This document shows positions 3,478-32,000 of a stretch of DNA of 32,000 nucleotides, in pieces. The stretch spans positions 4,446,833 through 4,478,832 of the forward strand of contig NZ_AP017928.1 in assembly GCF_003584645.1 (NCBI RefSeq), written 5' to 3'. Positions within the stretch are counted from its first letter, which is position 1; each line of letters opens with the position of its first letter. The position numbers and the translations under genes were made by a program. Under the pieces are notes generated by a model that had not been told where the DNA came from, did no database searches, and was given only the letters and a program-made list of their open reading frames with translations. This stretch comes from Methylocaldum marinum. Its GTDB lineage: Bacteria > Pseudomonadota > Gammaproteobacteria > Methylococcales > Methylococcaceae.

Positions 3478-3786
3478 GAAGCCGACGAAGACGCTCGGGC
3501 GGGGCAGGGCGTCGGGAAAGGATTCCCGACCAGGGTGGCACGGTCGTAGGTCGGCAATCCCTTGCCGACGAAGACGCTCGGGCGGGGCAGGGTGTCGGGA
3601 AAGGATTCCCGACCTACCAGGTGGCACGGTCGTAGGTCGGCAATCCCTTGCCGACGCAGACGCTCGGGCGGGGCAGGGCGTCGGGAAAGGATTCCCGACC
3701 TACAGGGTGGCACGGTCGTAGGTCGGCAATCCCTTGCCGACGAAGACGCTCGGGCGGGGCAGGGCGTCGGGAAAGGTTTCCCGGCC
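3478..3786. repeat. Tandem intergenic repeat, about 4 units of 83-86 bp, each with two perfect 8-bp-stem hairpins (REP/BIME-like)
   Basis: Hairpin A gtcgggaa-agga-ttcccgac at 3511, 3594 and 3680, degenerate at 3766. Hairpin B gtcggcaa-tccc-ttgccgac at 3550, 3636 and 3722. Linker ..gaagacgctcgggcggggcagggc.. is conserved. Confidence 0.9.
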
Positions 3787-14500: not shown

Positions 14501-15461
14501 GGCGAGCCAATTCGCGCCCGGCCAGTTTTACCGGGTACAGAACTTCGAAACCCTGGCTCCCGTGGCGGAAGGCACGGTGCTGGCCTCGGAAGGGATGGCC
14601 CTGACCGGCGCCTGGGTCGACAAGAGCCGCGGGCTGATCTCCCTCATCGCACTGGAAATGGGCAGTTCCACCCGATTGTGCGCCACCTGGCGGCCGGGCG
14701 ATCCCATCGTGGTGATGGGCGTCACCGGCGCGCCCACCGACATACCTTCCGGCCGGACCGTGCTGCTGGCCGGCGGCGGGCTCGGCAACGCGGTGCTGTT
14801 CTCCATCGGCAAGGCTCTGCGCGCCGCGGGCAACCGCGTGATTTATTTTGCCGGCTACCGCAACCGCGAGGACCTGTTCAAGACGGAGGACATCGAAGCC
14901 GCCTCCGATCTCACCGTCTGGACGGTGGACAAGCGTCCGGGCAACGCTCCCATTCCGGTTACCCGGCCCCGGGACAAGAGCTTCGTCGGCAATATCGTCG
15001 AGGCGATGCTCGCCTATGGCCGGGGAGAACTGGGGGAGACGCCGATTCGGCTCGATCAGGTGGAGCATATGATCGTCATCGGTTCCGACCGCATGATGGC
15101 GGCGGTGAAGGAAGCCCGCCACGGCGTTCTCGAACCCTATCTCAAGGCCTGCCGCGAACTCGTGGGTTCCATCAATTCGCCCATGCAGTGCATGATGAAA
15201 GGGGTGTGCGCCCAATGCCTGTGCAAGCACGTGGACCCCGAAACCGGCAAGGCGTGTTTCGTCTACACCTGCAATAACCAGGATCAGGCCTTGGACCGGG
15301 TTGATTTCGCCAACCTCGGCGCACGTTTGCGGCAGAATTCGGTGCAGGAAAAACTGTCCGCGCTATGGCTCGATCATGTGCTGGAACGGCAGGCGTCCGC
15401 GGCCGGCGCAAAGGAAGAGCGGGCCTGCGCCGCTGGGGCAGCGGCGGGTTTGGAACAATGA
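11541..15461 (+). CDS. Large fused iron-sulfur flavoprotein: unknown N-terminal ~330 aa, then GltD/NfnB-like oxidoreductase, then PyrK/NfnA-like ferredoxin-reductase module
   Basis: Cys clusters CIHCHDRDADSC, GCPLEEKI and CPGTGHRICNDCMKACIY. Rossmann motifs VLVAGMGPAGYT and VVGGGLTAIDTA. PyrK-like FAPGQFYRV, LLAGGGLGNAVLFSIG and the 2Fe-2S motif CMMKGVCAQCLCKH...CNNQD. Confidence 0.85.
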   Translation: MKHTSDDSVSPTFVPNPASLSDTLGIPPYRYRDLHDPERLNDLMRSFDTRVCEQDSELFGEFREYRACAGEGMAPERISELLVRMAPWVGDFLARLFDVVAIRERQIEAVRGEFDSVFVYRDHILGKLPVRFKSETPEQWDIGSVCRRFDTMLAAAGDAERLAKDAEGAVSELAARLWRLSQHYEAVAAGKAETCATADTGVAALREKLAASPRAASLLADVLGEASAGEFVGGLLEVVCRWSYAAARVPDLKPQVAGWVSFKTPAKTDFNHLVEHADRAESGYTVWTAPPGHHRRRDGFALTDPGFGRRRVLYEVDHCIHCHDRDADSCAKGMRNKKDGSYKTNPLGQDITGCPLEEKISEMQWLKRRGDNIAALALIVIDNPMCPGTGHRICNDCMKACIYQKTEPVDIPQVETSVLTDVLFMPWGFEIYSLLTRWNPLNVRRPCALPYNGKNVLVAGMGPAGYTLSHYLLNEGFGVVGIDGLKIEPLPRELTGDGQTPPRPIRDFRELYEDLDKRVMLGFGGVAEYGITVRWDKNFLKVIYLNLLRRKAFRCYGGVRFGGTLTVDDAWALGFDHIAIASGAGKPTVIDLKNNLARGIRKASDFLMALQLTGAAKASSLANLQVRLPAGVVGGGLTAIDTATELLAYYPVQVSKILHRYEKLASVYGEETVRARYDREELAILDEFLAHGRVIQQERERAASAGETPDFLPLLEQWGGVTLYYRKGIKDSPAYRQNHEEVAKALEEGIRLAEGMNPVEAVEDGYGHLAGVRFEKFEQQDGKWCKQAEIAVPLRSLFVAAGTSPNTIYESEHPDTFEMDGKFYQRFEPNWSPHPGPLEPSPQTRLPKGDGFNSSLLPLGEGVGMREGEGVPLLKPIDDTAIPKIGKPAPFTSYRRHGRFITFYGDNHPVYAGNVVRAMASAKDGYPYIVKLFENHLAALDPAAQGARDAALAAFQRNLDDALIGRIVGVGRLTPTIIEVVVRAPMAASQFAPGQFYRVQNFETLAPVAEGTVLASEGMALTGAWVDKSRGLISLIALEMGSSTRLCATWRPGDPIVVMGVTGAPTDIPSGRTVLLAGGGLGNAVLFSIGKALRAAGNRVIYFAGYRNREDLFKTEDIEAASDLTVWTVDKRPGNAPIPVTRPRDKSFVGNIVEAMLAYGRGELGETPIRLDQVEHMIVIGSDRMMAAVKEARHGVLEPYLKACRELVGSINSPMQCMMKGVCAQCLCKHVDPETGKACFVYTCNNQDQALDRVDFANLGARLRQNSVQEKLSALWLDHVLERQASAAGAKEERACAAGAAAGLEQ
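14040..14160. repeat. Palindromic REP-like element embedded in frame inside the 1306-aa CDS
   Basis: Two perfect hairpins: aacccgtctccc-aaa-gggagacgggtt and cccttctccc-tct-gggagaaggg. Flanked by ccctcacccc / ggggtagggatgaggg. Translates to PLEPSPQTRLPKGDGFNSSLLPLGEGVGMREGEGV without stops. Confidence 0.75.
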
Positions 15462-19966: not shown

Positions 19967-20211
19967 GTAGGGTGCGGTGAGGAACGAACCGCACCGATCG
20001 CGAACGATGCGGTTCCTTCGTCACCGCATCCTACGAGGTCTCGATTCGAACTGAAGACCACCGGCAGAGAATAGACGAAGGAACCCGTCTTATTCATCCG
20101 GCCCTTAAATACCCTATTGATTCCGTTCGGGCCGAGCTTGTCGAAGCCCCAAGCCGAGTGCCTTTCGACAAGCTCAGGGCGAACGTTATTTTGGGCCGGG
20201 TCAATAATGCT
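19967..20211. repeat. Array-terminal spacer: short REP, CRISPR-like remnant, 12-bp-stem hairpin
   Basis: REP gtagggtgcggtgagg...tcaccgcatcctac at 19967-20034. aggtctcgattcgaac at 20036-20051, then a 35-nt unique segment, then gtcttattcatcc at 20087. Hairpin gagcttgtcgaa/ttcgacaagctc at 20134-20175. Confidence 0.8.
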
Positions 20212-21009
20212 TTAGGGCTGGATCAGCAAGCCCCGGGGCAGGGTAGGGTGCTCCGCCGTGACCGCGAGCCCCCGGCGCAGGCCGAGATTGGCCAGGGCCA
20301 CGGCATAATCGCAGATGAATTCGAACGTCGTATTCTTGCCCTCGCCGCGGGCGTAACCCTGATAGATTTTCAGTTGCGCGGCCAGTCCCTCGTTGAAGCG
20401 CGCCGCGTCCCGCTCCAGGATGCCGGACAGAGCCGTGACGAGCGAGTGGTAGTTCCGGTCCGCCGCGCTTTTGGGCGGTTTGCGGGCGTAATCGTCGAAC
20501 TGCGCCTGCAGCCGCTGGCGGGCGTCTTCGAGGCGGTCCCGCACGGTGAAGGCCAGGGCATTGACATAGCGGTTGACATCGAGGCCGAGGCTGAAGCCGT
20601 CGGGGCGATCACGATACCCGCGTCCCAGTTCGACGGCGAGATCGAAATCGGCGGCCATCAGGGCGAAATTCAGGCCGTCGATGGCGATGGTTTCGCTTAC
20701 GGCGCTGAGGTCGGCTTTTTCCCCCTGATAATCGGGGTCCGTTTCGTCGTAAGCCATGCGGAAGCTTTTCAGGATGTGGCGGGCGGCATTGGCGAACTCG
20801 GCCCGGACCTCGGCGATCGGGTCGCCGTTCAGGAACTTGGCGCGGGCGAGGGAAGCATAAAGCATGGCCGTGCCCGTGTGAACACTCTCGATTGAAATGT
20901 TTTCCGCTTCGTAGAAACCGCTTTTGAAGTCTTCCTCCGTCTGCGTCAGTCCGTCTCTTGCCACCTTTAGCCAATGATCGATCTGCTGCTGTTCCGGTGT
21001 GTTGCTCAT
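20212..21009 (-). CDS. Putative immunity protein, unit 1 (265 aa; allele pattern a-1-1)
   Basis: Its ATG overlaps the stop of the upstream toxin-tip ORF (ATGA). One of 7 paralogs starting MSNTPEQQQIDHWL. The role is inferred from position downstream of the toxin-like domain. Confidence 0.75.
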   Translation of the reverse strand: MSNTPEQQQIDHWLKVARDGLTQTEEDFKSGFYEAENISIESVHTGTAMLYASLARAKFLNGDPIAEVRAEFANAARHILKSFRMAYDETDPDYQGEKADLSAVSETIAIDGLNFALMAADFDLAVELGRGYRDRPDGFSLGLDVNRYVNALAFTVRDRLEDARQRLQAQFDDYARKPPKSAADRNYHSLVTALSGILERDAARFNEGLAAQLKIYQGYARGEGKNTTFEFICDYAVALANLGLRRGLAVTAEHPTLPRGLLIQP

Positions 21010-21401
21010 TTGAACGCCTCTCCGATTACCTGTTTCAGTTCGTTGAAGTTTTCCAGCTCGAATTCGTCCAGGGTTTGGGCGATGTTGCCGTCCGCATCGC
21101 GTTCGAACACGCGCACCCGGCCGGTGTCGGTATTGGTGTGAACGGAGATGTGCTGTTTGTTGCCTTGTTTACGTATTACCTCTCCCCACAAATCGATCTC
21201 CTCCGCCGTGTACGGTCCGCCCTGGCGATTGGAGGGAAGGCCGACCTTCCGGGCCTTGTCTTCAGTCATCAACCGGGCTCTGCTGCGGTTCTTCGCTCGG
21301 GAGCCCTGCCGGTTCCCGTTGATATCCAGCGCCACCGACGTGCTGTCCCGGTTGTTGCCCTTGGCCTCCCACTCGGCCAGCCGGCCGTCCTTCTTCGTCA
21401 T
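21006..21401 (-). CDS. Orphan toxin C-terminal domain cassette, unit 1 (131 aa, variant A)
   Basis: Homologous to the last ~132 aa of the 428-aa gene at 29934-31220. Begins MTKKDGRLAEWEAKGNN. No obvious Shine-Dalgarno, so possibly a silent cassette. Confidence 0.7.
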   Translation of the reverse strand: MTKKDGRLAEWEAKGNNRDSTSVALDINGNRQGSRAKNRSRARLMTEDKARKVGLPSNRQGGPYTAEEIDLWGEVIRKQGNKQHISVHTNTDTGRVRVFERDADGNIAQTLDEFELENFNELKQVIGEAFK

Positions 21402-21697
21402 GTCGTCCGGGCCGTGGTAGCCCGTAGGGTGCGGTGAGGCGCGAACCGCACCGATGGCGCCGGCGAACGGTGCCTGTCCTGAGCGGTGAATGATGCGGTT
21501 CCTTCGTCACCGCATCCTGCGAGGTCTCGATTCGAACCGAAGATGACCGGCAGAGAATAGAAGAAGGAACCCGTCTGATTAATCCGGCCCTTAAATACGC
21601 TATTGATTCCGTTCGGGCCGAGCTTGCCGAAGCCCCAAGCCGAGTGCCTTTCGACAAGCTCAGGGCGAACGTTATTTTGGGCCGGGTCAATAATGCT
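21402..21697. repeat. Inter-cassette spacer: 20-nt coding-homology handle, 97-bp REP, CRISPR-like remnant, hairpin
   Basis: Handle gtcgtccgggccgtggtagc. REP at 21424-21520. aggtctcgattcgaac at 21522, then 35 nt, then gtctgattaatcc. Hairpin gagcttgccgaa/ttcgacaagctc. Confidence 0.8.
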
Positions 21698-22495
21698 TTA
21701 GGGCTGGATCAGCAAGCCCCGGGGCAGGGTAGGGTGCTCCGCCGTGACCTCGAGCCCCCGGCGCAGGCCGAGATTGGCCAGGGCCACGGCATAATCGCAG
21801 ATGAATTCGAACGTCGTATTCTTGCCCTCGCCGCGGGCGTAACCCTGATAGATTTTCAGTTGCGCGGCCAGTCCCTCGTTGAAGCGCGCCGCGTCCCGCT
21901 CCAGGATGCCGGACAGAGCCGTGACGAGCGAGTGGTAGTTCCGGTCCGCCGCGCTTTTGGGCGGTTTGCGGGCGTAATCGTCGAACTGCGCCTGCAGCCG
22001 CTGGCGGGCGTCTTCGAGGCGGTCCCGCACGGTGAAGGCCAGGGCATTGACATAGCGGTTGACATCGAGGCCGAGGCTGAAGCCGTCGGGGCGATCACGA
22101 TACCCGCGTCCCAGTTCGACGGCGAGATCGAAATCGGCGGCCATCAGGGCGAAATTCAGGCCGTCGATGGCGATGGTTTCGCTTACGGCGCTGAGGTCGG
22201 CTTTTTCCCCCTGATAATCGGGGTCCGTTTCGTCGTAAGCCATGCGGAAGCTTTTCAGGATGTGGCGGGCGGCATTGGCGAACTCGGCCCGGACCTCGGC
22301 GATCGGGTCGCCGTTCAGGAACTTGGCGCGGGCGAGGGAAGCATAAAGCATGGCCGTGCCCGTGTGAACACTCTCGATTGAAATGTTTTCCGCTTCGTAG
22401 AAACCGCTTTTGAAGTCTTCCTCCGTCTGCGTCAGTCCGTCTCTTGCCACCTTTAGCCAATGATCGATCTGCTGCTGTTCCGGTGTGTTGCTCAT
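21698..22495 (-). CDS. Putative immunity protein, unit 2 (265 aa; a-1-1, one residue different from unit 1)
   Basis: Identical to unit 1 except LEVTAEH versus LAVTAEH near the C-terminus. Confidence 0.75.
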   Translation of the reverse strand: MSNTPEQQQIDHWLKVARDGLTQTEEDFKSGFYEAENISIESVHTGTAMLYASLARAKFLNGDPIAEVRAEFANAARHILKSFRMAYDETDPDYQGEKADLSAVSETIAIDGLNFALMAADFDLAVELGRGYRDRPDGFSLGLDVNRYVNALAFTVRDRLEDARQRLQAQFDDYARKPPKSAADRNYHSLVTALSGILERDAARFNEGLAAQLKIYQGYARGEGKNTTFEFICDYAVALANLGLRRGLEVTAEHPTLPRGLLIQP

Positions 22496-22887
22496 TTGAA
22501 CGCCTCTCCGATTACCTGTTTCAGTTCGTTGAAGTTTTCCAGCTCGAATTCGTCCAGGGTTTGGGCGATGTTGCCGTCCGCATCGCGTTCGAACACGCGC
22601 ACCCGGCCGGTGTCGGTATTGGTGTGAACGGAGATGTGCTGTTTGTTGCCTTGTTTACGTATTACCTCTCCCCACAAATCGATCTCCTCCGCCGTGTACG
22701 GTCCGCCCTGGCGATTGGAGGGAAGGCCGACCTTCCGGGCCTTGTCTTCAGTCATCAACCGGGCTCTGCTGCGGTTCTTCGCTCGGGAGCCCTGCCGGTT
22801 CCCGTTGATATCCAGCGCCACCGACGTGCTGTCCCGGTTGTTGCCCTTGGCCTCCCACTCGGCCAGCCGGCCGTCCTTCTTCGTCAT
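22492..22887 (-). CDS. Orphan toxin C-terminal domain cassette, unit 2 (131 aa, variant A)
   Basis: Protein identical to the unit 1 cassette. ATGA overlap with the downstream gene. Confidence 0.7.
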   Translation of the reverse strand: MTKKDGRLAEWEAKGNNRDSTSVALDINGNRQGSRAKNRSRARLMTEDKARKVGLPSNRQGGPYTAEEIDLWGEVIRKQGNKQHISVHTNTDTGRVRVFERDADGNIAQTLDEFELENFNELKQVIGEAFK

Positions 22888-23183
22888 GTCGTCCGGGCCG
22901 TGGTAGCCCGTAGGGTGCGGTGAGGCGCGAACCGCACCGATGGCGCCGGCGAACGGTGCCTGTCCTGAGCGGTGAATGATGCGGTTCCTTCGTCACCGCA
23001 TCCTGCGAGGTCTCGATTCGAACCGAAGATGACCGGCAGAGAATAGAAGAAGGAACCCGTCTGATTAATCCGGCCCTTAAATACGCTATTGATTCCGTTC
23101 GGGCCGAGCTTGCCGAAGCCCCAAGCCGAGTGCCTTTCGACAAGCTCAGGGCGAACGTTATTTTGGGCCGGGTCAATAATGCT
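22888..23183. repeat. Inter-cassette spacer (handle, REP, CRISPR-like remnant, hairpin)
   Basis: REP at 22910-23006. aggtctcgattcgaac at 23008. Same b-type variant as 21402-21697. Confidence 0.8.
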
Positions 23184-23984
23184 TTAGGGCTGGATCAGCA
23201 AGCCCCGGGGCAGGGTAGGGTGCTCCGCCGTGACCTCGAGCCCCCGGCGCAGGCCGAGATTGGCCAAGGCGACGGCGTGATCGCAGATGAATTCCTCGTC
23301 GGTGTTCCGGGCCTCGCCGCGGGCGTAACTCTGATAGATTTTCAGTTGCGCGGCCAGTCCCTCGTTGAAGCGGGCTTCGTTCGTGTCCGCAATGCCGGAT
23401 AGAGCCGTGCTCAAGGTGAAGTAGTTCTTGCGATAATCGTTGCGCTTGGATGGCTTGGCCGCATACGCATCGATCTGAGCCGACAACAGCCCGCGGGCCT
23501 GCGGCAGGTCGTCGAGTACGACGGATTTGAGGGCATTGACATAGCGGTTGACATCGAGGCCGAGGCTGAAGCCGTCGGGGCGATCACGATACCCGCGTCC
23601 CAGTTCGACGGCGAGATCGAAATCGGCGGCCATCAGGGCGAAATTCAGGCCGTCGATGGCGATGGTTTCGCTTACGGCGCTGAGGTCGGCTTTTTCCCCC
23701 TGATAATCGGGGTCCGTTTCGTCGTAGGCCATGCGGAAGCTTTTCAGGATGTGGCGGGCGGCATTGGCGAACTCGGCCCGGACCTCGGCGATCGGGTCGC
23801 CGTTCAGGAACTTGGCGCGGGCGAGGGAAGCATAAAGCATGGCCGTGCCCGTGTGAACACTCTCGATTGAAATGTTTTCCGCTTCGTAGAAACCGCTTTT
23901 GAAGTCTTCCTCCGTCTGCGTCAGTCCGTCTCTTGCCACCTTTAGCCAATGATCGATCTGCTGCTGTTCCGGTGTGTTGCTCAT
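23184..23984 (-). CDS. Putative immunity protein, unit 3 (266 aa; a-1-2)
   Basis: N-terminal two thirds match units 1 and 2. The C-terminal third switches to ..KSVVLDDLPQARGLLSAQIDAYAAKPSKRNDYRKNYF... Confidence 0.75.
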   Translation of the reverse strand: MSNTPEQQQIDHWLKVARDGLTQTEEDFKSGFYEAENISIESVHTGTAMLYASLARAKFLNGDPIAEVRAEFANAARHILKSFRMAYDETDPDYQGEKADLSAVSETIAIDGLNFALMAADFDLAVELGRGYRDRPDGFSLGLDVNRYVNALKSVVLDDLPQARGLLSAQIDAYAAKPSKRNDYRKNYFTLSTALSGIADTNEARFNEGLAAQLKIYQSYARGEARNTDEEFICDHAVALANLGLRRGLEVTAEHPTLPRGLLIQP

Positions 23985-24376
23985 TTGAACGCCTCTCCGA
24001 TTACCTGTTTCAGTTCGTTGAAGTTTTCCAGCTCGAATTCGTCCAGGGTTTGGGTGATATTGCCTCTGTGGTCGCGTTCGAACACGCGCACCCGGCCGGT
24101 GTCGGTATTGGTGTGAACGGAGATGTGCTGTTTGTTGCCTTGTTTACGTATTACCTCTCCCCACAAATCGATCTCCTCCGCCGTGTACGGTCCGCCCTGG
24201 CGGTTGGAGGGAAGGCCGACCTTCCGGGCCTTGTCGCGGGTCATCAACTGGGCTCGGACGAGGTTCTTGTCACGCGAGCCCTGCCGGTTCCCGTTGATAT
24301 CCAGCGCCACCGACGTGCTGTCCCGGTTGTTGCCCTTGGCCTCCCACTCGGCCAGCCGGCCGTCCTTCTTCGTCAT
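23981..24376 (-). CDS. Orphan toxin C-terminal domain cassette, unit 3 (131 aa, variant B, a hybrid of A and C patches)
   Basis: Patch 1 DKNLVRAQLMTRDKARK (C-like), patch 2 VIRKQGN (A-like), patch 3 DHRGNITQ (C-like). Confidence 0.7.
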   Translation of the reverse strand: MTKKDGRLAEWEAKGNNRDSTSVALDINGNRQGSRDKNLVRAQLMTRDKARKVGLPSNRQGGPYTAEEIDLWGEVIRKQGNKQHISVHTNTDTGRVRVFERDHRGNITQTLDEFELENFNELKQVIGEAFK

Positions 24377-24672
24377 GTCGTCCGGGCCGTGGTAGCCCGT
24401 AGGGTGCGGTGAGGCGCGAACCGCACCGATGGCGCCGGCGAACGGTGCCTGTCCTGAGCGGTGAATGATGCGGTTCCTTCGTCACCGCATCCTACGAGGT
24501 CTCGATTCGAACTGAAGACCACCGGCAGAGAATAGACGAAGGAACCCGTCTTATTCATCCGGCCCTTAAATACCCTATTGATTCCGTTCGGGCCGAGCTT
24601 GTCGAAGCCCCAAGCCGAGTGCCTTTCGACAAGCTCAGGGCGAACGTTATTTTGGGCCGGGTCAATAATGCT
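24377..24672. repeat. Inter-cassette spacer (handle, REP, CRISPR-like remnant, hairpin)
   Basis: REP at 24399-24495. aggtctcgattcgaac at 24497, then 35 nt, then gtcttattcatcc. Confidence 0.8.
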
Positions 24673-25473
24673 TTAGGGCTGGATCAGCAAGCCTCGGGGC
24701 AGGGTAGGGTGCTCCGCCGTGACCGCGAGTCCCCGGCGCAGGCCGAGATTGGCCAAGGCGACGGCGTGATCGCAGATGAATTCCTCGTCGGTGTTCCGGG
24801 CCTCGCCGCGGGCGTAACTCTGATAGATTTTCAGTTGCGCGGCCAGTCCCTCGTTGAAGCGGGCTTCGTTCGTGTCCGCAATGCCGGATAGAGCCGTGCT
24901 CAAGGTGAAGTAGTTCTTGCGATAATCGTTGCGCTTGGATGGCTTGGCCGCATACGCATCGATCTGAGCCGACAACAGCCCGCGGGCCTGCGGCAGGTCG
25001 TCGAGTACGACGGATTTGAGGGCATTGACATAGCGGTTGACATCGAGGCCGAGGCTGAAGCCGTCGGGCGAATCCCGATACCCGCGTCCCAGTTCGACGG
25101 CGAGATCGAAATCGGCGGCCATGAACGCGTGATTGAAGCCTCGTATGGCGATGGTTTCGCTTACGGCGCTGAGGTCGGCTTTTTCCCCCTGATAATCGGG
25201 GTCCGTTTCGTCGTAGGCCATGCGGAAGCTTTTCAGGATGTGGCGGGCGGCATTGGCGAACTCGGCCCGGACCTCGGCGATCGGGTCGCCGTTCAGGAAC
25301 TTGGCGCGGGCGAGGGAAGCGTGATCTCCCGCAACCGCCGTGTGAACGCATTGCAAGGACACACCATGTTTTTCATGAAACCCTTCCCTGTTCAACCGCC
25401 AGGTCCGTTCAATTTGGTAGCGGGCATTGTTCAGCCAATGATCGATCTGCTGCTGTTCCGGTGTGTTGCTCAT
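24673..25473 (-). CDS. Putative immunity protein, unit 4 (266 aa; b-1'-2)
   Basis: New N-terminal segment NNARYQIERTWRLNREGFHEKHGVSLQCVHTAVAGDHASLA. Middle segment is a hybrid (..IAIRGFNHAFMAADFDLAVELG..). C-terminal third matches unit 3. Confidence 0.75.
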   Translation of the reverse strand: MSNTPEQQQIDHWLNNARYQIERTWRLNREGFHEKHGVSLQCVHTAVAGDHASLARAKFLNGDPIAEVRAEFANAARHILKSFRMAYDETDPDYQGEKADLSAVSETIAIRGFNHAFMAADFDLAVELGRGYRDSPDGFSLGLDVNRYVNALKSVVLDDLPQARGLLSAQIDAYAAKPSKRNDYRKNYFTLSTALSGIADTNEARFNEGLAAQLKIYQSYARGEARNTDEEFICDHAVALANLGLRRGLAVTAEHPTLPRGLLIQP

Positions 25474-25865
25474 TTGAACGCCTCTCCGATTACCTGTTTC
25501 AGTTCGTTGAAGTTTTCCAGCTCGAATTCGTCCAGGGTTTGGGTGATATTGCCTCTGTGGTCGCGTTCGAACACGCGCACCCGGCCGGTGTCGGTATTGG
25601 TGTGAACGGAGATGTGCTGTTTGTCGCCGCCCAATTCGTCAATCTCGCCCCACAGATCGATCTCCTCCGCCGTGTACGGTCCGCCCTGGCGGTCGGAAGG
25701 GAGGCCGGCCTTCCGGGCCTTGTCGCGGGTCATCAACTGGGCTCGGACGAGGTTCTTGTCACGCGAGCCCTGCCGGTTCCTGTTGATATCCAGCGCCACC
25801 GACGTGCTGTCCTGGTTGTTGCCCTTGGCCTCCCACTCGGCCAGCCGGCCGTCCTTCTTCGTCAT
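25470..25865 (-). CDS. Orphan toxin C-terminal domain cassette, unit 4 (131 aa, variant C)
   Basis: Variant C: NNQDSTS, INRNRQGSRDKNLVRAQLMTRDKARKAGLPSD, IDELGGD, DHRGNITQ. Confidence 0.7.
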   Translation of the reverse strand: MTKKDGRLAEWEAKGNNQDSTSVALDINRNRQGSRDKNLVRAQLMTRDKARKAGLPSDRQGGPYTAEEIDLWGEIDELGGDKQHISVHTNTDTGRVRVFERDHRGNITQTLDEFELENFNELKQVIGEAFK

Positions 25866-26161
25866 GTCGTCCGGGCCGTGGTAGCCCGTAGGGTGCGGTG
25901 AGGCGCGAACCGCACCGATGGCGCCGGCGAACGGTGCCTGTCCTGAGCGGTGAATGATGCGGTTCCTTCGTCACCGCATCCTACGAGGTCTCGATTCGAA
26001 CTGAAGACGACCGGCAGAGAATAGACGAAGGAACCCGTCTTATTCATCCGGCCCTTAAATACCCTATTGATTCCGTTCGGGCCGAGCTTGTCGAAGCCCC
26101 AAGCCGAGTGCCTTTCGACAAGCTCAGGGCGAACGTTATTTTGGGCCGGGTCAATAATGCT
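25866..26161. repeat. Inter-cassette spacer (handle, REP, CRISPR-like remnant, hairpin)
   Basis: REP at 25888-25984. aggtctcgattcgaac at 25986. Confidence 0.8.
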
Positions 26162-26959
26162 TTAGGGCTGGATCAGCAAGCCTCGGGGCAGGGTAGGGTG
26201 CTCCGCCGTGACCGCGAGCCCCCGGCGCAGGCCGAGATTGGCCAGGGCCACGGCATAATCGCAGATGAATTCGAACGTCGTATTCTTGCCCTCGCCGCGG
26301 GCGTAACCCTGATAGATTTTCAGTTGCGCGGCCAGTCCCTCGTTGAAGCGCGCCGCGTCCCGCTCCAGGATGCCGGACAGAGCCGTGACGAGCGAGTGGT
26401 AGTTCCGGTCCGCCGCGCTTTTGGGCGGTTTGCGGGCGTAATCGTCGAACTGCGCCTGCAGCCGCTGGCGGGCGTCTTCGAGGCGGTCCCGCACGGTGAA
26501 GGCCAGGGCATTGACATAGCGGTTGACATCGAGGCCGAGGCTGAAGCCGTCGGGGCGATCACGATACCCGCGTCCCAGTTCGACGGCGAGATCGAAATCG
26601 GCGGCCATCAGGGCGAAATTCAGGCCGTCGATGGCGATGGTTTCGCTTACGGCGCTGAGGTCGGCTTTTTCCCCCTGATAATCGGGGTCCGTTTCGTCGT
26701 AAGCCATGCGGAAGCTTTTCAGGATGTGGCGGGCGGCATTGGCGAACTCGGCCCGGACCTCGGCGATCGGGTCGCCGTTCAGGAACTTGGCGCGGGCGAG
26801 GGAAGCGTGCATTCCAGCCAGGGTGCAATACATTCCTTGAATCGGCAGGTTTTCCCGAGCGTAGAAGCCCGAGCGATAGAGTTCCCACTTTTCCGTAATG
26901 CCTTCCTGCGATACCGCGAGCCAATGATCGATCTGCTGCTGTTCCGGTGTGTTGCTCAT
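26162..26959 (-). CDS. Putative immunity protein, unit 5 (265 aa; c-1-1)
   Basis: Unique N-terminal segment AVSQEGITEKWELYRSGFYARENLPIQGMYCTLAGMHASLA. The remainder matches unit 1. Confidence 0.75.
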   Translation of the reverse strand: MSNTPEQQQIDHWLAVSQEGITEKWELYRSGFYARENLPIQGMYCTLAGMHASLARAKFLNGDPIAEVRAEFANAARHILKSFRMAYDETDPDYQGEKADLSAVSETIAIDGLNFALMAADFDLAVELGRGYRDRPDGFSLGLDVNRYVNALAFTVRDRLEDARQRLQAQFDDYARKPPKSAADRNYHSLVTALSGILERDAARFNEGLAAQLKIYQGYARGEGKNTTFEFICDYAVALANLGLRRGLAVTAEHPTLPRGLLIQP

Positions 26960-27351
26960 TTGAACGCCTCTCCGATTACCTGTTTCAGTTCGTTGAAGTT
27001 TTCCAGCTCGAATTCGTCCAGGGTTTGGGTGATATTGCCTCTGTGGTCGCGTTCGAACACGCGCACCCGGCCGGTGTCGGTATTGGTGTGAACGGAGATG
27101 TGCTGTTTGTCGCCGCCCAATTCGTCAATCTCGCCCCACAGATCGATCTCCTCCGCCGTGTACGGTCCGCCCTGGCGGTCGGAAGGGAGGCCGGCCTTCC
27201 GGGCCTTGTCGCGGGTCATCAACTGGGCTCGGACGAGGTTCTTGTCACGCGAGCCCTGCCGGTTCCTGTTGATATCCAGCGCCACCGACGTGCTGTCCTG
27301 GTTGTTGCCCTTGGCCTCCCACTCGGCCAGCCGGCCGTCCTTCTTCGTCAT
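26956..27351 (-). CDS. Orphan toxin C-terminal domain cassette, unit 5 (131 aa, variant C)
   Basis: Protein identical to the unit 4 and unit 6 cassettes. Confidence 0.7.
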   Translation of the reverse strand: MTKKDGRLAEWEAKGNNQDSTSVALDINRNRQGSRDKNLVRAQLMTRDKARKAGLPSDRQGGPYTAEEIDLWGEIDELGGDKQHISVHTNTDTGRVRVFERDHRGNITQTLDEFELENFNELKQVIGEAFK

Positions 27352-27647
27352 GTCGTCCGGGCCGTGGTAGCCCGTAGGGTGCGGTGAGGCGCGAACCGCA
27401 CCGATGGCGCCGGCGAACGGTGCCTGTCCTGAGCGGTGAATGATGCGGTTCCTTCGTCACCGCATCCTACGAGGTCTCGATTCGAACTGAAGACGACCGG
27501 CAGAGAATAGACGAAGGAACCCGTCTTATTCATCCGGCCCTTAAATACCCTATTGATTCCGTTCGGGCCGAGCTTGTCGAAGCCCCAAGCCGAGTGCCTT
27601 TCGACAAGCTCAGGGCGAACGTTATTTTGGGCCGGGTCAATAATGCT
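27352..27647. repeat. Inter-cassette spacer (handle, REP, CRISPR-like remnant, hairpin)
   Basis: REP at 27374-27470. aggtctcgattcgaac at 27472. Confidence 0.8.
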
Positions 27648-28448
27648 TTAGGGCTGGATCAGCAAGCCCCGGGGCAGGGTAGGGTGTTCCGCCGTGACTT
27701 CGAGCCCCCGGCGCAGGCCGAGATTGGCCAGGGCGACGGCATAATCGCAGATGAATTCCTCGTCGGTGTCCTTCAATTCGCCTTGCGCATCGCCCTGATA
27801 AAAGTTCAACTGCATCATCAAACCTTCGTTGAAGCGGGCTTCGTTCGTGTCCGCAATGCCGGATAGAGCCGTGCTCAAGGTGAAGTAGTTCTTGCGATAA
27901 TCGTTGCGCTTGGATGGCTTGGCCGCATAGGCATCGAACTGAGCGGCCAACAACTCTTGGGCACTCCGCAGGTCGTCGAGCAAGACGCCTTTCAGCGCAT
28001 GGGCATATCGGTTGACTTCGACAACTTTTTTTACTCCGTCCGGGCGGTCCCGAAACCAACCGGCCAGTTCGGCGGCCAGGCTGAAGTCGGCGGCCATGAG
28101 TGCGTGATTGAAGCCTCGAATGGCGATGGTTTCGGCGACGCAACTCAAATCGGCGGCACTGCCTTGATAATTGGGGTCCGTTTCGTCGTAGGCCATGCGG
28201 AAGCTTTTCAGGATGTGGCGGGCGGCATTGGCGAACTCGGCCCGGACCTCGGCGATCGGGTCGCCGTTCAGGAACTTGGCGCGGGCGAGGGAAGCGTGAT
28301 CTCCCGCAACCGCCGTGTGAACGCATTGCAAGGACACACCATGTTTTTCATGAAACCCTTCCCTGTTCAACCGCCAGGTCCGTTCAATTTGGTAGCGGGC
28401 ATTGTTCAGCCAATGATCGATCTGCTGCTGTTCCGGTGTGTTGCTCAT
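27648..28448 (-). CDS. Putative immunity protein, unit 6 (266 aa; b-3-3)
   Basis: N-terminal segment matches unit 4. Middle and C-terminal segments are a third type (..GSAADLSCVAETIAIRGFNHALMAADFSLAAELAGWFRDRPDGVKKVVEV.. and ..LMMQLNFYQGDAQGELKDTDEEF..). Confidence 0.75.
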   Translation of the reverse strand: MSNTPEQQQIDHWLNNARYQIERTWRLNREGFHEKHGVSLQCVHTAVAGDHASLARAKFLNGDPIAEVRAEFANAARHILKSFRMAYDETDPNYQGSAADLSCVAETIAIRGFNHALMAADFSLAAELAGWFRDRPDGVKKVVEVNRYAHALKGVLLDDLRSAQELLAAQFDAYAAKPSKRNDYRKNYFTLSTALSGIADTNEARFNEGLMMQLNFYQGDAQGELKDTDEEFICDYAVALANLGLRRGLEVTAEHPTLPRGLLIQP

Positions 28449-28840
28449 TTGAACGCCTCTCCGATTACCTGTTTCAGTTCGTTGAAGTTTTCCAGCTCGA
28501 ATTCGTCCAGGGTTTGGGTGATATTGCCTCTGTGGTCGCGTTCGAACACGCGCACCCGGCCGGTGTCGGTATTGGTGTGAACGGAGATGTGCTGTTTGTC
28601 GCCGCCCAATTCGTCAATCTCGCCCCACAGATCGATCTCCTCCGCCGTGTACGGTCCGCCCTGGCGGTCGGAAGGGAGGCCGGCCTTCCGGGCCTTGTCG
28701 CGGGTCATCAACTGGGCTCGGACGAGGTTCTTGTCACGCGAGCCCTGCCGGTTCCTGTTGATATCCAGCGCCACCGACGTGCTGTCCTGGTTGTTGCCCT
28801 TGGCCTCCCACTCGGCCAGCCGGCCGTCCTTCTTCGTCAT
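28445..28840 (-). CDS. Orphan toxin C-terminal domain cassette, unit 6 (131 aa, variant C)
   Basis: Protein identical to the unit 4 and unit 5 cassettes. Confidence 0.7.
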   Translation of the reverse strand: MTKKDGRLAEWEAKGNNQDSTSVALDINRNRQGSRDKNLVRAQLMTRDKARKAGLPSDRQGGPYTAEEIDLWGEIDELGGDKQHISVHTNTDTGRVRVFERDHRGNITQTLDEFELENFNELKQVIGEAFK

Positions 28841-29136
28841 GTCGTCCGGGCCGTGGTAGCCCGTAGGGTGCGGTGAGGCGCGAACCGCACCGATGGCGCC
28901 GGCGAACGGTGCCTGTCCTGAGCGGTGAATGATGCGGTTCCTTCGTCACCGCATCCTACGAGGTCTCGATTCGAACTGAAGACGACCGGCAGAGAATAGA
29001 CGAAGGAACCCGTCTTATTCATCCGGCCCTTAAATACCCTATTGATTCCGTTCGGGCCGAGCTTGTCGAAGCCCCAAGCCGAGTGCCTTTCGACAAGCTC
29101 AGGGCGAACGTTATTTTGGACCGGGTCAATAATGCT
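28841..29136. repeat. Inter-cassette spacer (handle, REP, CRISPR-like remnant, hairpin)
   Basis: REP at 28863-28959. aggtctcgattcgaac at 28961. Confidence 0.8.
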
Positions 29137-29937
29137 TTAGGGCTGGATCAGCAAGCCCCGGGGCAGGGTAGGGTGTTCCGCCGTGACTTCGAGCCCCCGG
29201 CGCAGGCCGAGATTGGCCAGGGCGACGGCATAATCGCAGATGAATTCCTCGTCGGTGTCCTTCAATTCGCCTTGCGCATCGCCCTGATAAAAGTTCAACT
29301 GCATCATCAAACCTTCGTTGAAGCGGGCTTCGTTCGTGTCCGCAATGCCGGATAGAGCCGTGCTCAAGGTGAAGTAGTTCTTGCGATAATCGTTGCGCTT
29401 GGATGGCTTGGCCGCATAGGCATCGAACTGAGCGGCCAACAACTCTTGGGCACTCCGCAGGTCGTCGAGCAAGACGCCTTTCAGCGCATGGGCATATCGG
29501 TTGACTTCGACAACTTTTTTTACTCCGTCCGGGCGGTCCCGAAACCAACCGGCCAGTTCGGCGGCCAGGCTGAAGTCGGCGGCCATGAGTGCGTGATTGA
29601 AGCCTCGAATGGCGATGGTTTCGGCGACGCAACTCAAATCGGCGGCACTGCCTTGATAATCGGGGTCCGTTTCGTCGTAGGCCATGCGGAAGCTTTTCAG
29701 GATGTGGCGGGCGGCATTGGCGAACTCGGCCCGGACCTCGGCGATCGGGTCGCCGTTCAGGAACTTGGCGCGGGCGAGGGCGGCATGCCAGCCTGCCAGT
29801 CCAGTAAAATGAATTTGAAGTGAAATGTTCTTTTTTTCATAGAACCCTTCTGCGTAAAGTTGGTGCTTACGGGCAATCCGTGTTGTTGCCGTATTAAGCC
29901 AATGATCGATCTGCTGCTGTTCCGGTGTGTTGCTCAT
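29137..29937 (-). CDS. Putative cognate immunity protein of the full-length toxin, unit 7 (266 aa; d-3-3)
   Basis: Directly downstream of the 428-aa gene with an ATGA overlap. Unique AT-richer N-terminal segment NTATTRIARKHQLYAEGFYEKKNISLQIHFTGLAGWHAALA. The rest matches unit 6. Confidence 0.78.
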   Translation of the reverse strand: MSNTPEQQQIDHWLNTATTRIARKHQLYAEGFYEKKNISLQIHFTGLAGWHAALARAKFLNGDPIAEVRAEFANAARHILKSFRMAYDETDPDYQGSAADLSCVAETIAIRGFNHALMAADFSLAAELAGWFRDRPDGVKKVVEVNRYAHALKGVLLDDLRSAQELLAAQFDAYAAKPSKRNDYRKNYFTLSTALSGIADTNEARFNEGLMMQLNFYQGDAQGELKDTDEEFICDYAVALANLGLRRGLEVTAEHPTLPRGLLIQP

Positions 29938-31220
29938 TTGAACGCCTCTCCGATTACCTGTTTCAGTTCGTTGAAGTTTTCCAGCTCGAATTCGTCCAGG
30001 GTTTGGGCGATGTTGCCGTCCGCATCGCGTTCGAACACGCGCACCCGGCCGGTGTTGGTGTTGGTGTGGACGGAGATGTGCTGTTTGTCGCCGCCCAATT
30101 CGTCAATCTCGCCCCACAAATCGATCTCCTCCGCCGTGTACGGTCCGCCCTGGCGATTGGAGGGGAGTCCCACTTTGCCTTGTTGTTCCTTTCCTAGCAG
30201 GGTCCGAGCGCGTAATTGATTCTTATCTCTAGACCCTTGCAAATTGCCGTGCTTATCCATTGCCACCGACGTGCTGTCCTGGTTGTTGCCCTTGGCCTCC
30301 CACTCGGCCAGCCGGCCGTCCTTCTTCGTCATGTCGTCCGGGCCGTGGTAGCGGTCCACGTAGCGCGGGTCGGAGCGGTGTCCCAGCCGGCGCTTGGCTT
30401 GCTCCAGCCCGGCCTTGCCCAGCGCCTCGGGCGCCGAGCGGGTGTTGTGGGTCAGGATCTGCTTGAGATCGGCCGCGAATTCGTCCGGGTGGCGCACCAC
30501 CGAGCGGAACCGGGTGGCCAGGGCCATGGCGGCGGACAGCATCGCGCCCGCGCCGGCCGAGTCGCGGACCACGCGCGCCCCGTCGGCCTCGCCGTCGCCG
30601 ACCGGGGGCAGCAGGTCCCGCCCGTCCGTCTCGTAGCGCTGCCGGACCGCGCCGGGACCAAGGGTTTCGCCGGTGGCCCGGTCCCTGAACGCCACGATGT
30701 TCCGCTCCGCCAGCCATTCGGCATTCATCGCCGCGTTGGCCTTGGCGAAGCGATTGCCCAGTTCCTTCGCCCCGCCCACCGCCTTGTCCCACCACGACCC
30801 CGGGGCCGAGCCCCGGCGCGTGGGCGTTTCGTTCAAGCGGCGGAGGATGTCTTCCAGGCGCCGGCGGAGGATCGGAAGCTCCGTCATAGAAAGGTTGCTC
30901 ACCCAGCGGCCTCGATCCGCGGATTCGCCGTCCGCTTGCCAGCGGACCACCGGCGCAAAGGGCCGCTTACCGGATTCATGGACCAGGAAAACTTCCCCGT
31001 AGTCGATCTCGTCCAGCAACAGGTCGAGAGTTGCCGGATCCCAGTGCGGCGGGGGATCGAGATCGTCGAACAGGTCGGCCAGCACGTCGTCGAGGTCCCA
31101 GATGCGGTCCGGCTCGTCGTCATCGAGGAACGCCCATTCGATGTCCGAACGGGCAAAGAAGGGATGCTCGATGTTCGGCAGGTCCGACCATTCGAGGTCC
31201 TCGGGGCGTTTCAGTCTCAT
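29934..31220 (-). CDS. Full-length polymorphic-toxin-like protein (428 aa): unique acidic N-terminal ~296 aa plus variable ~132-aa C-terminal domain (variant D)
   Basis: GAGAGGGA RBS lies 8-10 nt upstream of ATG 31220. The C-terminal part from ..YHGPDDMTKKDGRLAEWEAKGNN is homologous to the six 131-aa cassettes. No signal peptide or recognisable trafficking domain by eye. Confidence 0.85.
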   Translation of the reverse strand: MRLKRPEDLEWSDLPNIEHPFFARSDIEWAFLDDDEPDRIWDLDDVLADLFDDLDPPPHWDPATLDLLLDEIDYGEVFLVHESGKRPFAPVVRWQADGESADRGRWVSNLSMTELPILRRRLEDILRRLNETPTRRGSAPGSWWDKAVGGAKELGNRFAKANAAMNAEWLAERNIVAFRDRATGETLGPGAVRQRYETDGRDLLPPVGDGEADGARVVRDSAGAGAMLSAAMALATRFRSVVRHPDEFAADLKQILTHNTRSAPEALGKAGLEQAKRRLGHRSDPRYVDRYHGPDDMTKKDGRLAEWEAKGNNQDSTSVAMDKHGNLQGSRDKNQLRARTLLGKEQQGKVGLPSNRQGGPYTAEEIDLWGEIDELGGDKQHISVHTNTNTGRVRVFERDADGNIAQTLDEFELENFNELKQVIGEAFK

Positions 31221-31260
31221 CGTGATTTTTCCCTCTCAGAATTGACACGCGCAGCGGATG

Positions 31261-31330: not shown

Positions 31331-31521
31331 GTTGGGTGAGGCGCGACGACCCGGCGCGTGATTCGGTGTGCTCGGCAGCGGCGAATGATGCGGGCGGCTT
31401 TGCTCACCACAGCCTACGGCCCGTAGGGTGCGGTGAGGCACGAACCGCACCGATGGCGTTCTCGAACGATGTCTGTCCCGCGCCCGTAGAAGGGCGGTTT
31501 CCTTCGTTCGTCGCAATCTAC
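31331..31521. repeat. Two adjacent REP elements of the gtagggtgcggtgagg family
   Basis: gggtgaggcgcga...ttgctcaccacagcctac at about 31331-31416. gtagggtgcggtgaggcacgaaccgcaccg...cgtcgcaatctac at 31423-31521. Confidence 0.75.
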
Positions 31522-31564: not shown

Positions 31565-31944
31565 GATTGGGTCCCTTCTTTATCAGGTCTCGATTCAAAC
31601 ATCAATGAAGTTGCCCCAGACGAAAAGATGTCGAAGTCTTAATCCCTTCTTTATCAGGTGTCGATTCAAACAGATGAATCCCGCAGAACTTGCGGCTTAT
31701 CTGAAGTCTTAATCCCTTCTTTATCAGGTCTCGATTCAAACGTTCAAGGGCGCGAAGACGACCGTGGCATGCCTCCGCGTCTTAATCCCTTCTTTATCAG
31801 GTCTCGATTCAAACCAAGGAGCAGCTGGCGACAACGCAGGGGAAGCGGCGTCTTAATCCCTTCTTTATCAGGTCTCGATTCAAACACCACAGTTGGCGGG
31901 ATGTCGATGCCGCGCTTCGCGTCTTAACAGGCTGTTGAAATTCG
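31565..31944. CRISPR. CRISPR array: 36-bp repeat GTCTTAATCCCTTCTTTATCAGGTCTCGATTCAAAC with five spacers of 34-37 bp; both terminal repeats degenerate
   Basis: Repeats at 31565 (5 mismatches), 31636 (1 mismatch), 31706, 31779 and 31850, plus a truncated repeat at 31921 (gtcttaa then cagg..). Unique spacers at 31601-31635, 31672-31705, 31742-31778, 31815-31849 and 31886-31920. No cas genes in the window and orientation is unresolved. Confidence 0.9.
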
Positions 31945-32000
31945 CCTCCATGCCTTCGGCTTTACCCCTTATCGGCGGCTTAATTTTTAGTGCTGAAGGT

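Follow-up and report, generated by a model that had tools for sequence, protein, structure and literature searches.

Why would a chromosome carry six shortened copies of one gene, each coupled to a copy of a second gene? The question is raised by a stretch of 32,000 nt from Methylocaldum marinum (contig NZ_AP017928.1, positions 4,446,833 to 4,478,832; the window hereafter). On its minus strand, between 19.9 and 31.2 kb, an open reading frame (ORF) of 428 amino acids (aa) precedes seven ORFs of 265/266 aa and six of 131 aa, the latter being 5'-truncated copies of the 3' end of the 428-aa gene. We read it as a polymorphic locus for a nuclease toxin and its immunity protein, backed by a store of silent cassettes ready for recombination. 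The probability that we give to this reading, including putative delivery by a type VI secretion system (T6SS), cassette switching and a toxin-immunity specificity interface, is roughly two in three.

Organization of the locus

The proteins of the array are sS8_4116 to sS8_4129 of the finished 6.09-Mb chromosome of M. marinum S8 (exact record match). The stop of each 428-aa or 131-aa ORF is joined to the start of the next 265/266-aa ORF by a 4-nt overlap, ATGA. A repeat search gave seven in-register copies with a start-to-start spacing of 1486/1489 bp. Tandem Repeats Finder missed the array solely because its maximum period was 500. An earlier reading of the window's letters (the first-pass annotation) had reported the same coupling and a period of 1486-1489 bp, and both were confirmed by the ORF coordinates and the repeat search. 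The good ribosome-binding site (RBS) that it assigned to the 428-aa ORF was also found (GAGGG, 10 nt 5' of the ATG). Its seven-unit array stands for the repeat copies and the immunity genes, but only six complete orphan units exist, the first unit being embedded in the full-length gene. In total the array holds seven repeat copies, seven immunity genes, one expressed tip and six orphan tips (Table 1). The conserved coding blocks are 100% identical across units, synonymous sites included, and the spacers are 96-100% identical, a regularity far beyond chance. The high number and regularity of the cassettes had been called unusual, rightly so: among the relatives that we found, this six-cassette array is the largest.

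Table 1 Features of the locus, in window coordinates.
Feature	Position	Strand	Basis
Full-length gene of the candidate polymorphic toxin, 428 aa, sS8_4129	29934..31220	-	ORF calls; sole copy with N-terminus and good RBS
Shine-Dalgarno GAGGG, 10 nt upstream of the ATG of the full-length gene	31231..31235	-	read from sequence
N-terminal domain, aa 1-~135 (MxLKRxxDIEWxDLPxIExPFFA...GxVFLVH...PFSPVVRW...GRW), putative delivery/marker domain	30816..31220	-	profile search
Helical linker or 'pre-toxin' region, aa ~140-250 (SWWDxAVGGAKExxN...)	30471..30803	-	alignment, AlphaFold2 model
Predicted PD-(D/E)xK-type nuclease toxin domain, aa ~254-428	29937..30461	-	alignment of homologues and AlphaFold2 model
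Repeat copy 1: 20 nt encoding YHGPDD plus 132-codon tip, within the full-length gene	29937..30352	-	repeat comparison
Imm49-family immunity gene 1, 266 aa, ATGA-coupled to the full-length toxin	29137..29937	-	ORF call, Pfam
Orphan tip 2, 131 aa, start at M297 equivalent, without E265 and D295	28445..28840	-	ORF call, alignment
Imm49 gene 2, 266 aa	27648..28448	-	90% cluster shared with Imm49 gene 1
Orphan tip 3, 131 aa, nucleotide-identical to tips 2 and 4	26956..27351	-	ORF call, alignment
Imm49 gene 3, 265 aa	26162..26959	-	36.1 bits, above Pfam cutoff
Orphan tip 4, 131 aa	25470..25865	-	ORF call, alignment
Imm49 gene 4, 266 aa	24673..25473	-	ORF call, Pfam scan
Orphan tip 5, 131 aa, mosaic of tip 2-4 and tip 6-7 patches	23981..24376	-	ORF call, haplotype table
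Imm49 gene 5, 266 aa	23184..23984	-	ORF call, Pfam scan
Orphan tip 6, 131 aa	22492..22887	-	ORF call, alignment
Imm49 gene 6, 265 aa	21698..22495	-	in cluster that RefSeq calls 'Imm49 family immunity protein'
Orphan tip 7, 131 aa, identical to tip 6	21006..21401	-	ORF call, alignment
Imm49 gene 7, 265 aa	20212..21009	-	35.5 bits, above Pfam cutoff
Six inter-unit spacers, 296 nt each	28841-29136, 27352-27647, 25866-26161, 24377-24672, 22888-23183, 21402-21697	-	alignment of units
REP-like hairpin GGTGCGGTTCGnnCCTCACCGCACCCTAC following the last unit; every unit ends with this element	19967..19995	-	sequence search
REP-like hairpin GGTGCGGTTCGnnCCTCACCGCACCCTAC, second bracketing copy, upstream of the full-length gene	31423..31451	-	sequence search

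Candidate nuclease domain and Imm49 genes

A search of 5.8 billion proteins with the 428-aa protein gave 28 homologues, whose alignment delimits a conserved C-terminal module of ~175 aa (residues ~254-428). Invariant in this module are E265, R290, H292, G293, P294, D295, E306, E308, K310, Q328, S330, K333, N334 and R337, and, further downstream, S354, R356-Q-G-G359, Y361, E365, W369, K379 and H381. For E265, D295, E308-x-K310, Q328 and Y361 the invariance extends across 21-28 homologues. The resulting E...PD...ExK pattern is the signature of a candidate nuclease of the restriction-endonuclease fold. In the AlphaFold2 model of residues 250-428 (predicted local distance difference test, pLDDT, 93), E265 lies in a helix (263-279), D295 immediately precedes a strand (296-300), and E306, E308 and K310 lie in a second strand (303-312).

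Two toxin families have been paired with Imm49, Tox-REase-1 and Tox-REase-6, the latter with the motif 'E, D, ExK, Q, Y' (Zhang et al. 2012, PMC3482391). The residues of this motif, E, D, ExK, Q and (Y), are present in our domain, the likeness to Tox-REase-6/-1 being judged by motif only, as these families have no Pfam or NCBIfam model. The toxin domain occurs in fusion with PAAR (six), Tox-PAAR-like (three) and Hcp (one) domains among the 28 homologues.

The 265/266-aa proteins belong to Imm49, as judged by profile matches. The copies at 20212-21009 and 26162-26959 scored 35.5 and 36.1 bits against Pfam Imm49 (PF15575), with a gathering cutoff of 30.1, and three other copies scanned scored 17.6-29 bits, below the cutoff. 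The matches span only model positions ~85-217 of 217 (the C-terminal ~60%). Three copies of the array carry the RefSeq label 'Imm49 family immunity protein', and PF15575 was also found in the partners of homologous toxins elsewhere. Toxin and Imm49 pairs with ATGA-type coupling occur at ~55 loci in other genomes and metagenomes.

Taken as a family, sS8_4129 and its homologues are probably DNase-type inter-bacterial toxins neutralised by Imm49. The toxin role proposed in the first-pass annotation is supported by the invariant E...HGPD...ExK...Q...Y, by the PAAR, Tox-PAAR-like and Hcp fusions of the homologues and by the Imm49 partner. The immunity role, guessed at that time from gene order, is supported by the RefSeq names and by the profile searches that it had suggested, which placed the 265-aa protein in an immunity family. 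Its '132-aa domain' needs redrawing: the repeated segment is real, but it is the C-terminal three quarters of the ~175-aa nuclease domain and not a whole domain.

N-terminal domain and putative delivery

We searched 1.84 billion representative proteins (clusters at 50% identity) with a profile of the first 250 residues. Of the 254 clusters found, most matched positions 1-~135 only, at the extreme N-terminus of proteins of 200-1250 aa. The C-termini sampled behind this domain included Tle1-like phospholipase/lipase (two proteins), WHH/colicin-DNase, Ntox44, C39-like peptidases and a weak EndoU. One N-terminal domain is thus joined to unrelated toxin domains, as expected of polymorphic toxins, and because it heads so many unrelated C-termini, it appears to behave as a delivery or marker domain of this toxin class. 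It had no match among Pfam models, and the full-length model (pLDDT ~80-90 in this domain) gave no structural neighbour for it in Foldseek against the Protein Data Bank (PDB). The helical linker behind it is shared by relatives whose N-termini differ, one of them a PAAR-like fusion (P0014). The domain could act as a search handle for new toxins in environmental gamma- and betaproteobacteria, as MIX, FIX and RIX do for vibrios. The domain fusions of the homologues suggest T6SS delivery of the 428-aa toxin.

Cassette junctions and spacers

The homology between the full-length gene and the orphans starts 20 nt 5' of the orphan ATG, at GCTACCACGGCCCGGACGAC, which codes for YHGPDD. Upstream of it, all six orphans have the same join to a REP-like (repetitive extragenic palindromic) hairpin, so that each spacer ends with the identical junction ...CACCCTACGG|GCTACCACGGCCCGGACGAC-ATG. 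Since all six junctions are identical, we propose a single founding illegitimate duplication, followed by amplification. The orphan junction sequence had no exact match among metagenome contigs.

The orphan ORFs begin at the equivalent of M297, directly after the catalytic D295, and lack E265. Each cassette is therefore predicted to encode an incomplete nuclease. That the cut falls inside the active site hints at how toxin diversity might be stored without harm.

The 296-nt spacers share 96-100% identity and contain three REP-like hairpins apiece; the GGTGCGGTTCGnnCCTCACCGCACCCTAC hairpin also brackets the entire locus. The first hairpin of each spacer (e.g., 29060-29125, minus strand) has the form GAGCTTGTCGAAAGGC...GCTTCGACAAGCTC and translates to 'SLSKG / FDKLRAN' peptides, a recurrent feature of spurious ORFs in many environmental genomes. 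This hairpin is apparently an element of REP/MITE type (miniature inverted-repeat transposable element), dispersed widely and not part of the toxin system. An Rfam scan of the window gave no match.

We also considered an integron cassette array and rejected it. There is no integrase in the window, and by eye the spacer palindromes do not fit the R''/R' core sites of attC. These palindromes are dispersed REP-like elements, present outside the array too.

Mosaicism of the repeat units

A haplotype table of the seven aligned units, in 30-nt windows, showed blocks identical in all seven units, alternating with blocks of two to four alleles. Tip patch C splits the units into {1-4} and {5-7}, and patch D into {1,6,7} and {2-5}, in violation of the four-gamete rule. 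Such incompatible groupings require recombination.

In Imm49 codons 14-53, the proportions of synonymous (pS) and nonsynonymous (pN) differences were 0.65-0.91 and 0.40-0.51, with synonymous sites saturated. In Imm49 codons 54-92 and in tip codons 1-17 and 111-132, pS was ~0. The four alleles of the Imm49 N-patch are 32-48% identical to each other and 57-72% identical to Imm49 homologues in other orders, including those of a Rhodocyclales metagenome-assembled genome (MAG) and a Marinosulfonomonas MAG. Because synonymous divergence is saturated and the alleles are common to other orders, the variable patches are, to judge from these comparisons, old alleles shuffled by recombination and not the product of recent local mutation. 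Their pN/pS was 0.35-0.7, which at such saturation is no evidence for or against positive selection.

A diversity-generating retroelement or another form of in-situ hypermutation was rejected as the source of the variation. No reverse transcriptase was found among the window ORFs scanned, and the saturated synonymous divergence, the pN/pS values and the alleles shared with other orders speak against it as well.

In the model, the variable patches of the tip, none of which includes the invariant catalytic residues, occupy loops and one face of a helix, and they alternate with the invariant Q328, S330, K333, N334 and R337. Matching hypervariable patches are found in Imm49, above all at aa 14-53. 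We infer that the patches of both partners form the toxin-immunity specificity surfaces, of which the alternation of invariant and hypervariable stretches would be a natural map.

Relatives in other genomes and metagenomes

Five further full-length proteins fall in the same 90% cluster, four from other samples and one a second paralog in M. marinum S8. Their N-terminal 296 residues are ~98-99% identical, and the four tip patches are recombined differently. The second paralog, sS8_5548 (P0176), has an N-terminal 296 aa ~99% identical to that of sS8_4129 (three substitutions) and a different mosaic of tip patches; reshuffled tip patches are seen throughout P0175-P0178. L069, a contig from a different sample, matches the window exactly over 190 nt upstream, has two single-nucleotide polymorphisms in the first ~1160 aligned nt and diverges exactly at the first variable patch. 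Its tip has 63 differences from the expressed tip of the window and 21 from orphans 2-4.

Another case comes from a Rhodocyclales MAG (L033, 10001-12736), in which the N-terminal domain is followed by WHH/colicin-DNase, then by SUKH, then by an Imm49 gene without a restriction-endonuclease (REase) partner, and finally by a 130-aa ORF. This WHH, SUKH and orphan Imm49 order has the appearance of a classic displacement footprint. Evidence of C-terminal replacement between close relatives comes from L069, P0175-P0178 and L033. The displaced or silent modules postulated in the first-pass annotation agree with the differing tip mosaics of the five full-length proteins and with the orphan Imm49 of L033. 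The cross-genome comparison that it had also called for returned a conserved N-terminus, and tip patches differing between samples and paralogs.

In two distant relatives (L015, L023), the tips of the orphans that follow the first Imm49 likewise start at the RYHGPD codons or just past them. Several metagenomic contigs end at these codons or at the first variable patch, which suggests that such arrays are under-assembled and probably under-counted elsewhere. Most resolved relatives have a single toxin/Imm49 pair, and a few have an additional Imm49, in some cases with a remnant (L012, L058). Among GTDB species representatives, which do not include the source genome, the best match was 69% identical.

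Two side observations concern the relatives. A second locus from the same MAG as L033 (L003) has the REase/Imm49 version, followed by an unexplained 146-aa ORF. On another metagenomic contig (L066, 9377-10180), the toxin homologue ends a few codons past ...RYHGPDD, the point where the cassettes start, and opposite-strand ORFs beyond it resemble, by eye, phage genes for tail fibres and baseplates. The contig may be chimeric, or it may record a further rearrangement at the breakpoint of the cassettes.

Proposed mechanism and alternative explanations

In the mechanism that we propose, the expressed gene would encode a delivery/marker domain of ~135 aa, a helical linker and a PD-(D/E)xK-type, DNase-like toxin of ~175 aa. 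The translationally coupled Imm49 protein 1 would neutralise the toxin in the producer cell, and the toxin would reach neighbouring cells, most likely as a T6SS cargo effector. The six units (20 nt, tip, Imm49 gene and 296-nt REP-rich spacer) would have been amplified from the founding duplication by unequal crossing-over. Lacking a delivery domain, a complete active site, a good RBS and any recognisable promoter, the orphans would be harmless as stored. Identical sequence, both in ~90 nt at the 5' end (the YHGPDD codons plus MTKKDGRLAEWEAKGNN...) and in later blocks, would permit recombination with the expressed gene and between units. By deletion or gene conversion, such recombination would install a new tip/immunity combination or reshuffle patches. 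Given read-through and ATGA coupling, the seven divergent Imm49 genes may also serve as a poly-immunity arsenal against the toxin variants of related strains.

A more far-reaching proposal, which we put forward tentatively and consider rather less likely than its alternatives taken together, has two linked parts. The first is that a secreted nuclease and its antidote are switched in the style of pilE/pilS. The silent cassettes would hold the specificity-determining C-terminal part of a split PD-(D/E)xK site, non-toxic until recombination at the conserved RYHGPDD/EWEAKG active-site codons, a breakpoint that recurs in distant lineages. The second is that the ~135-aa N-terminal domain is an undescribed delivery/marker domain that marks out a broad class of 'orphan' polymorphic effectors. 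With >250 clusters at 50% identity, this class would extend over Methylococcales, Chromatiales, Rhodocyclales, Sedimenticolaceae and other groups.

Several observations weigh against a polymorphic toxin locus with silent cassettes. At the level of structure, PD-(D/E)xK nucleases led the best Foldseek matches of the toxin-domain model in the PDB, among them a bunyavirus cap-snatching endonuclease, the SPARDA nuclease and Hjc, in keeping with the proposed fold, but all were weak (E >= 0.03, template modelling score 0.27-0.35); we treat the fold assignment as supported by the motif and structurally inconclusive. Sequence-profile searches of the toxin domain in Pfam, NCBIfam and the PDB gave no relevant match. 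No toxin family was found in Pfam and NCBIfam scans of the 428-aa protein and its 28 homologues, and scans of toxin and tips in Pfam, NCBIfam and PADLOC returned only spurious YrbL matches (E ~0.03-0.1). With respect to delivery, Pfam found no PAAR, Hcp, VgrG, MIX or Rhs domain in the 428-aa protein, and there were no T6SS genes in the window or beside the homologues examined. One homologue (L001) has a defence-island-like context, with type I restriction-modification (R-M), Abi_alpha and SymE genes, and a small CRISPR-like (clustered regularly interspaced short palindromic repeats) array lies directly upstream of our toxin gene (31570-31927). Promoter and terminator scans of the minus strand of the spacers gave no convincing promoter or intrinsic terminator. 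Finally, tips 2-4 are nucleotide-identical and yet precede three very different Imm49 genes, which argues against cassettes of one tip and one immunity gene. Of the toxin/immunity modules in the first-pass annotation, the toxin and immunity roles are supported, but strict cognate pairs were not seen.

The last of these points is shared with the alternative that survives best, a poly-immunity island only. There the array would be kept for its seven Imm49 genes, and the tips would be inert remnants, at most upstream ORFs for ATGA coupling. Such an island would fit Imm49 genes far more diverse than the tips, and tips without the catalytic D295 and E265. Relatives with orphan immunity arrays and small remnants (a 34-aa remnant and a second Imm49 in L012; similar in L058 and L033) agree with it, and homogeneous poly-immunity loci have been described (PMC3482391). 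We nevertheless consider it unlikely, as all six tips are intact and full-length, with the in-frame YHGPDD codons kept, and as the expressed tip varies between samples and between both paralogs, with patches drawn from the allele pool of the orphans. Poly-immunity and cassette switching can also coexist.

The missing secretion-system domain, the missing T6SS genes and the adjoining CRISPR-like array would suit an intracellular toxin-antitoxin or abortive-infection module, with the N-terminal domain as sensor or regulator and the cassettes as a source of variety in the toxin/antitoxin pair. So would the homologues beside R-M, Abi_alpha and SymE genes, and others beside PIN/Phd and MazE genes. 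This is improbable in our view, because the toxin domain is joined elsewhere to PAAR, Hcp and PAAR-like modules, and because the N-terminal domain is also joined to a Tle1-like lipase and a C39-like peptidase, both hard to reconcile with an abortive-infection toxin of the cytoplasm. In addition, PADLOC scans of the toxin, the tip and two Imm49 copies gave no match at E <= 1, and 5'-truncated orphan tips and immunity arrays are a hallmark of polymorphic toxins.

A recent neutral tandem amplification or an assembly artefact, with functionless extra copies, is very improbable: the identical junctions and near-identical spacers do indicate a young amplification, and related assemblies often break at this locus, but drift since then could not have produced blocks with saturated synonymous divergence common to other taxa, every copy is free of frameshifts and premature stops, the 6.09-Mb source chromosome is finished, and smaller versions occur in unrelated assemblies.

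Other features of the window

The CRISPR-like array has four copies of a 36-nt repeat, GTCTTAATCCCTTCTTTATCAGGTCTCGATTCAAAC (0-1 mismatch), at 31636, 31706, 31779 and 31850, with unique spacers of 34-37 nt, a degenerate copy at ~31570 and a partial repeat at 31921. There were no cas genes within the window, which ends at 32000. The other genes of the window encode an ABC transporter, a GntR regulator, flavoproteins, a porin, an aminotransferase, a phosphatidylserine decarboxylase and PEMT. Between the ABC-transporter ATPase and GntR genes (3481-3783) there is an 86-nt GC-rich palindromic REP-like unit in 3.6 tandem copies, with 94% identity. On the plus strand, a 1306-aa ORF (11541-15461) has a weak central match to Pyr_redox_2 (residues 455-671), the remainder having no Pfam assignment. 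In the region upstream of this ORF (10-12 kb), which encodes an OprD-like porin, the G + C content falls to 51%. A 2026 preprint that surveyed genomes encoding a T6SS lists a candidate effector, T6EC12, from the congener M. szegediense O-12.

Comparison with known systems

Among known systems, the locus is best filed as a putative REase-type polymorphic toxin protected by Imm49, with an unnamed N-terminal domain. With Tox-REase-6/-1 and Imm49 (PMC3482391) it shares an Imm49 gene directly downstream, a restriction-endonuclease-fold candidate with E, D, ExK, Q and Y, an occurrence in gammaproteobacteria and T6SS modules in relatives. It differs in its short 428-aa carrier with another N-terminal domain, not of Rhs, FilH or PrsW type. 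Membership in these families is judged from the listed motif only, and the Imm49 match covers the C-terminal ~60% of the Pfam model. In Vibrio parahaemolyticus, a REase-6 fragment followed by two Imm49 genes was described in a paper since retracted (PMC6156420).

The MIX, FIX and RIX cargo effectors of the T6SS (PMC6688995, PMC10435454) likewise have a short N-terminal domain, interchangeable C-terminal toxins, many of them nucleases, and a downstream immunity gene; the likeness of our N-terminal domain to theirs is one of description. RIX genes are 'orphan', away from T6SS clusters (PMC10435454), and so is the locus here. RIX has, however, been reported only in Vibrionaceae and Moritellaceae, and FIX is usually found downstream of VgrG or DUF4123, which was not seen here. 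PoNe/PoNi (PMC6688995) is similar in its polymorphic PD-(D/E)xK DNase toxin class, with a dedicated immunity family, an N-terminal marker domain and T6SS among the delivery routes. This likeness is by description, and the PoNi immunity proteins are DUF1911/DUF1910, where the locus here has Imm49.

With contact-dependent inhibition (CDI; cdiA-CT/cdiI) and Rhs orphans, the locus shares a full-length gene, followed by 5'-truncated toxin fragments, each with an immunity gene and recombination homology. In its proposed working it is also like the immunity arrays of T6SS. CDI and Rhs orphans usually encode whole, often unrelated toxin domains after a conserved motif, whereas here the cassettes are of a single family, the break lies inside the catalytic domain just past the PD motif, and the six units are regular with identical junctions. 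Membership in either system was rejected, as Pfam found no CdiB, FHA, VENN, RHS/YD repeats or PxxxxDPxGL in the 428-aa protein or the window. The CDI/Rhs-like architecture of the first-pass annotation stands as a resemblance of the orphan-module layout, but the locus is neither CDI nor Rhs, since their defining domains are absent.

The pilE/pilS system of Neisseria and the alternative C-terminal cassettes of MafB combine one expression locus with silent, promoter-less, 5'-truncated copies, built of conserved and variable 'minicassettes' that recombine into mosaics. Our locus has the same combination of an expression locus with putatively silent 5'-truncated copies, the same alternation of conserved and variable minicassettes, and mosaic variants. 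Its cargo, in contrast to pilE/pilS, is a toxin with its immunity gene and not a surface antigen. A dedicated initiating element, like the G4 structure of pilE, was not found, though no search aimed at one was made. What sets this locus apart is the cut inside the catalytic domain, the regular six-cassette array of a single family, and the patchwork of ancient alleles between homogenised blocks, in an array that short-read assemblies break and a finished genome reveals.

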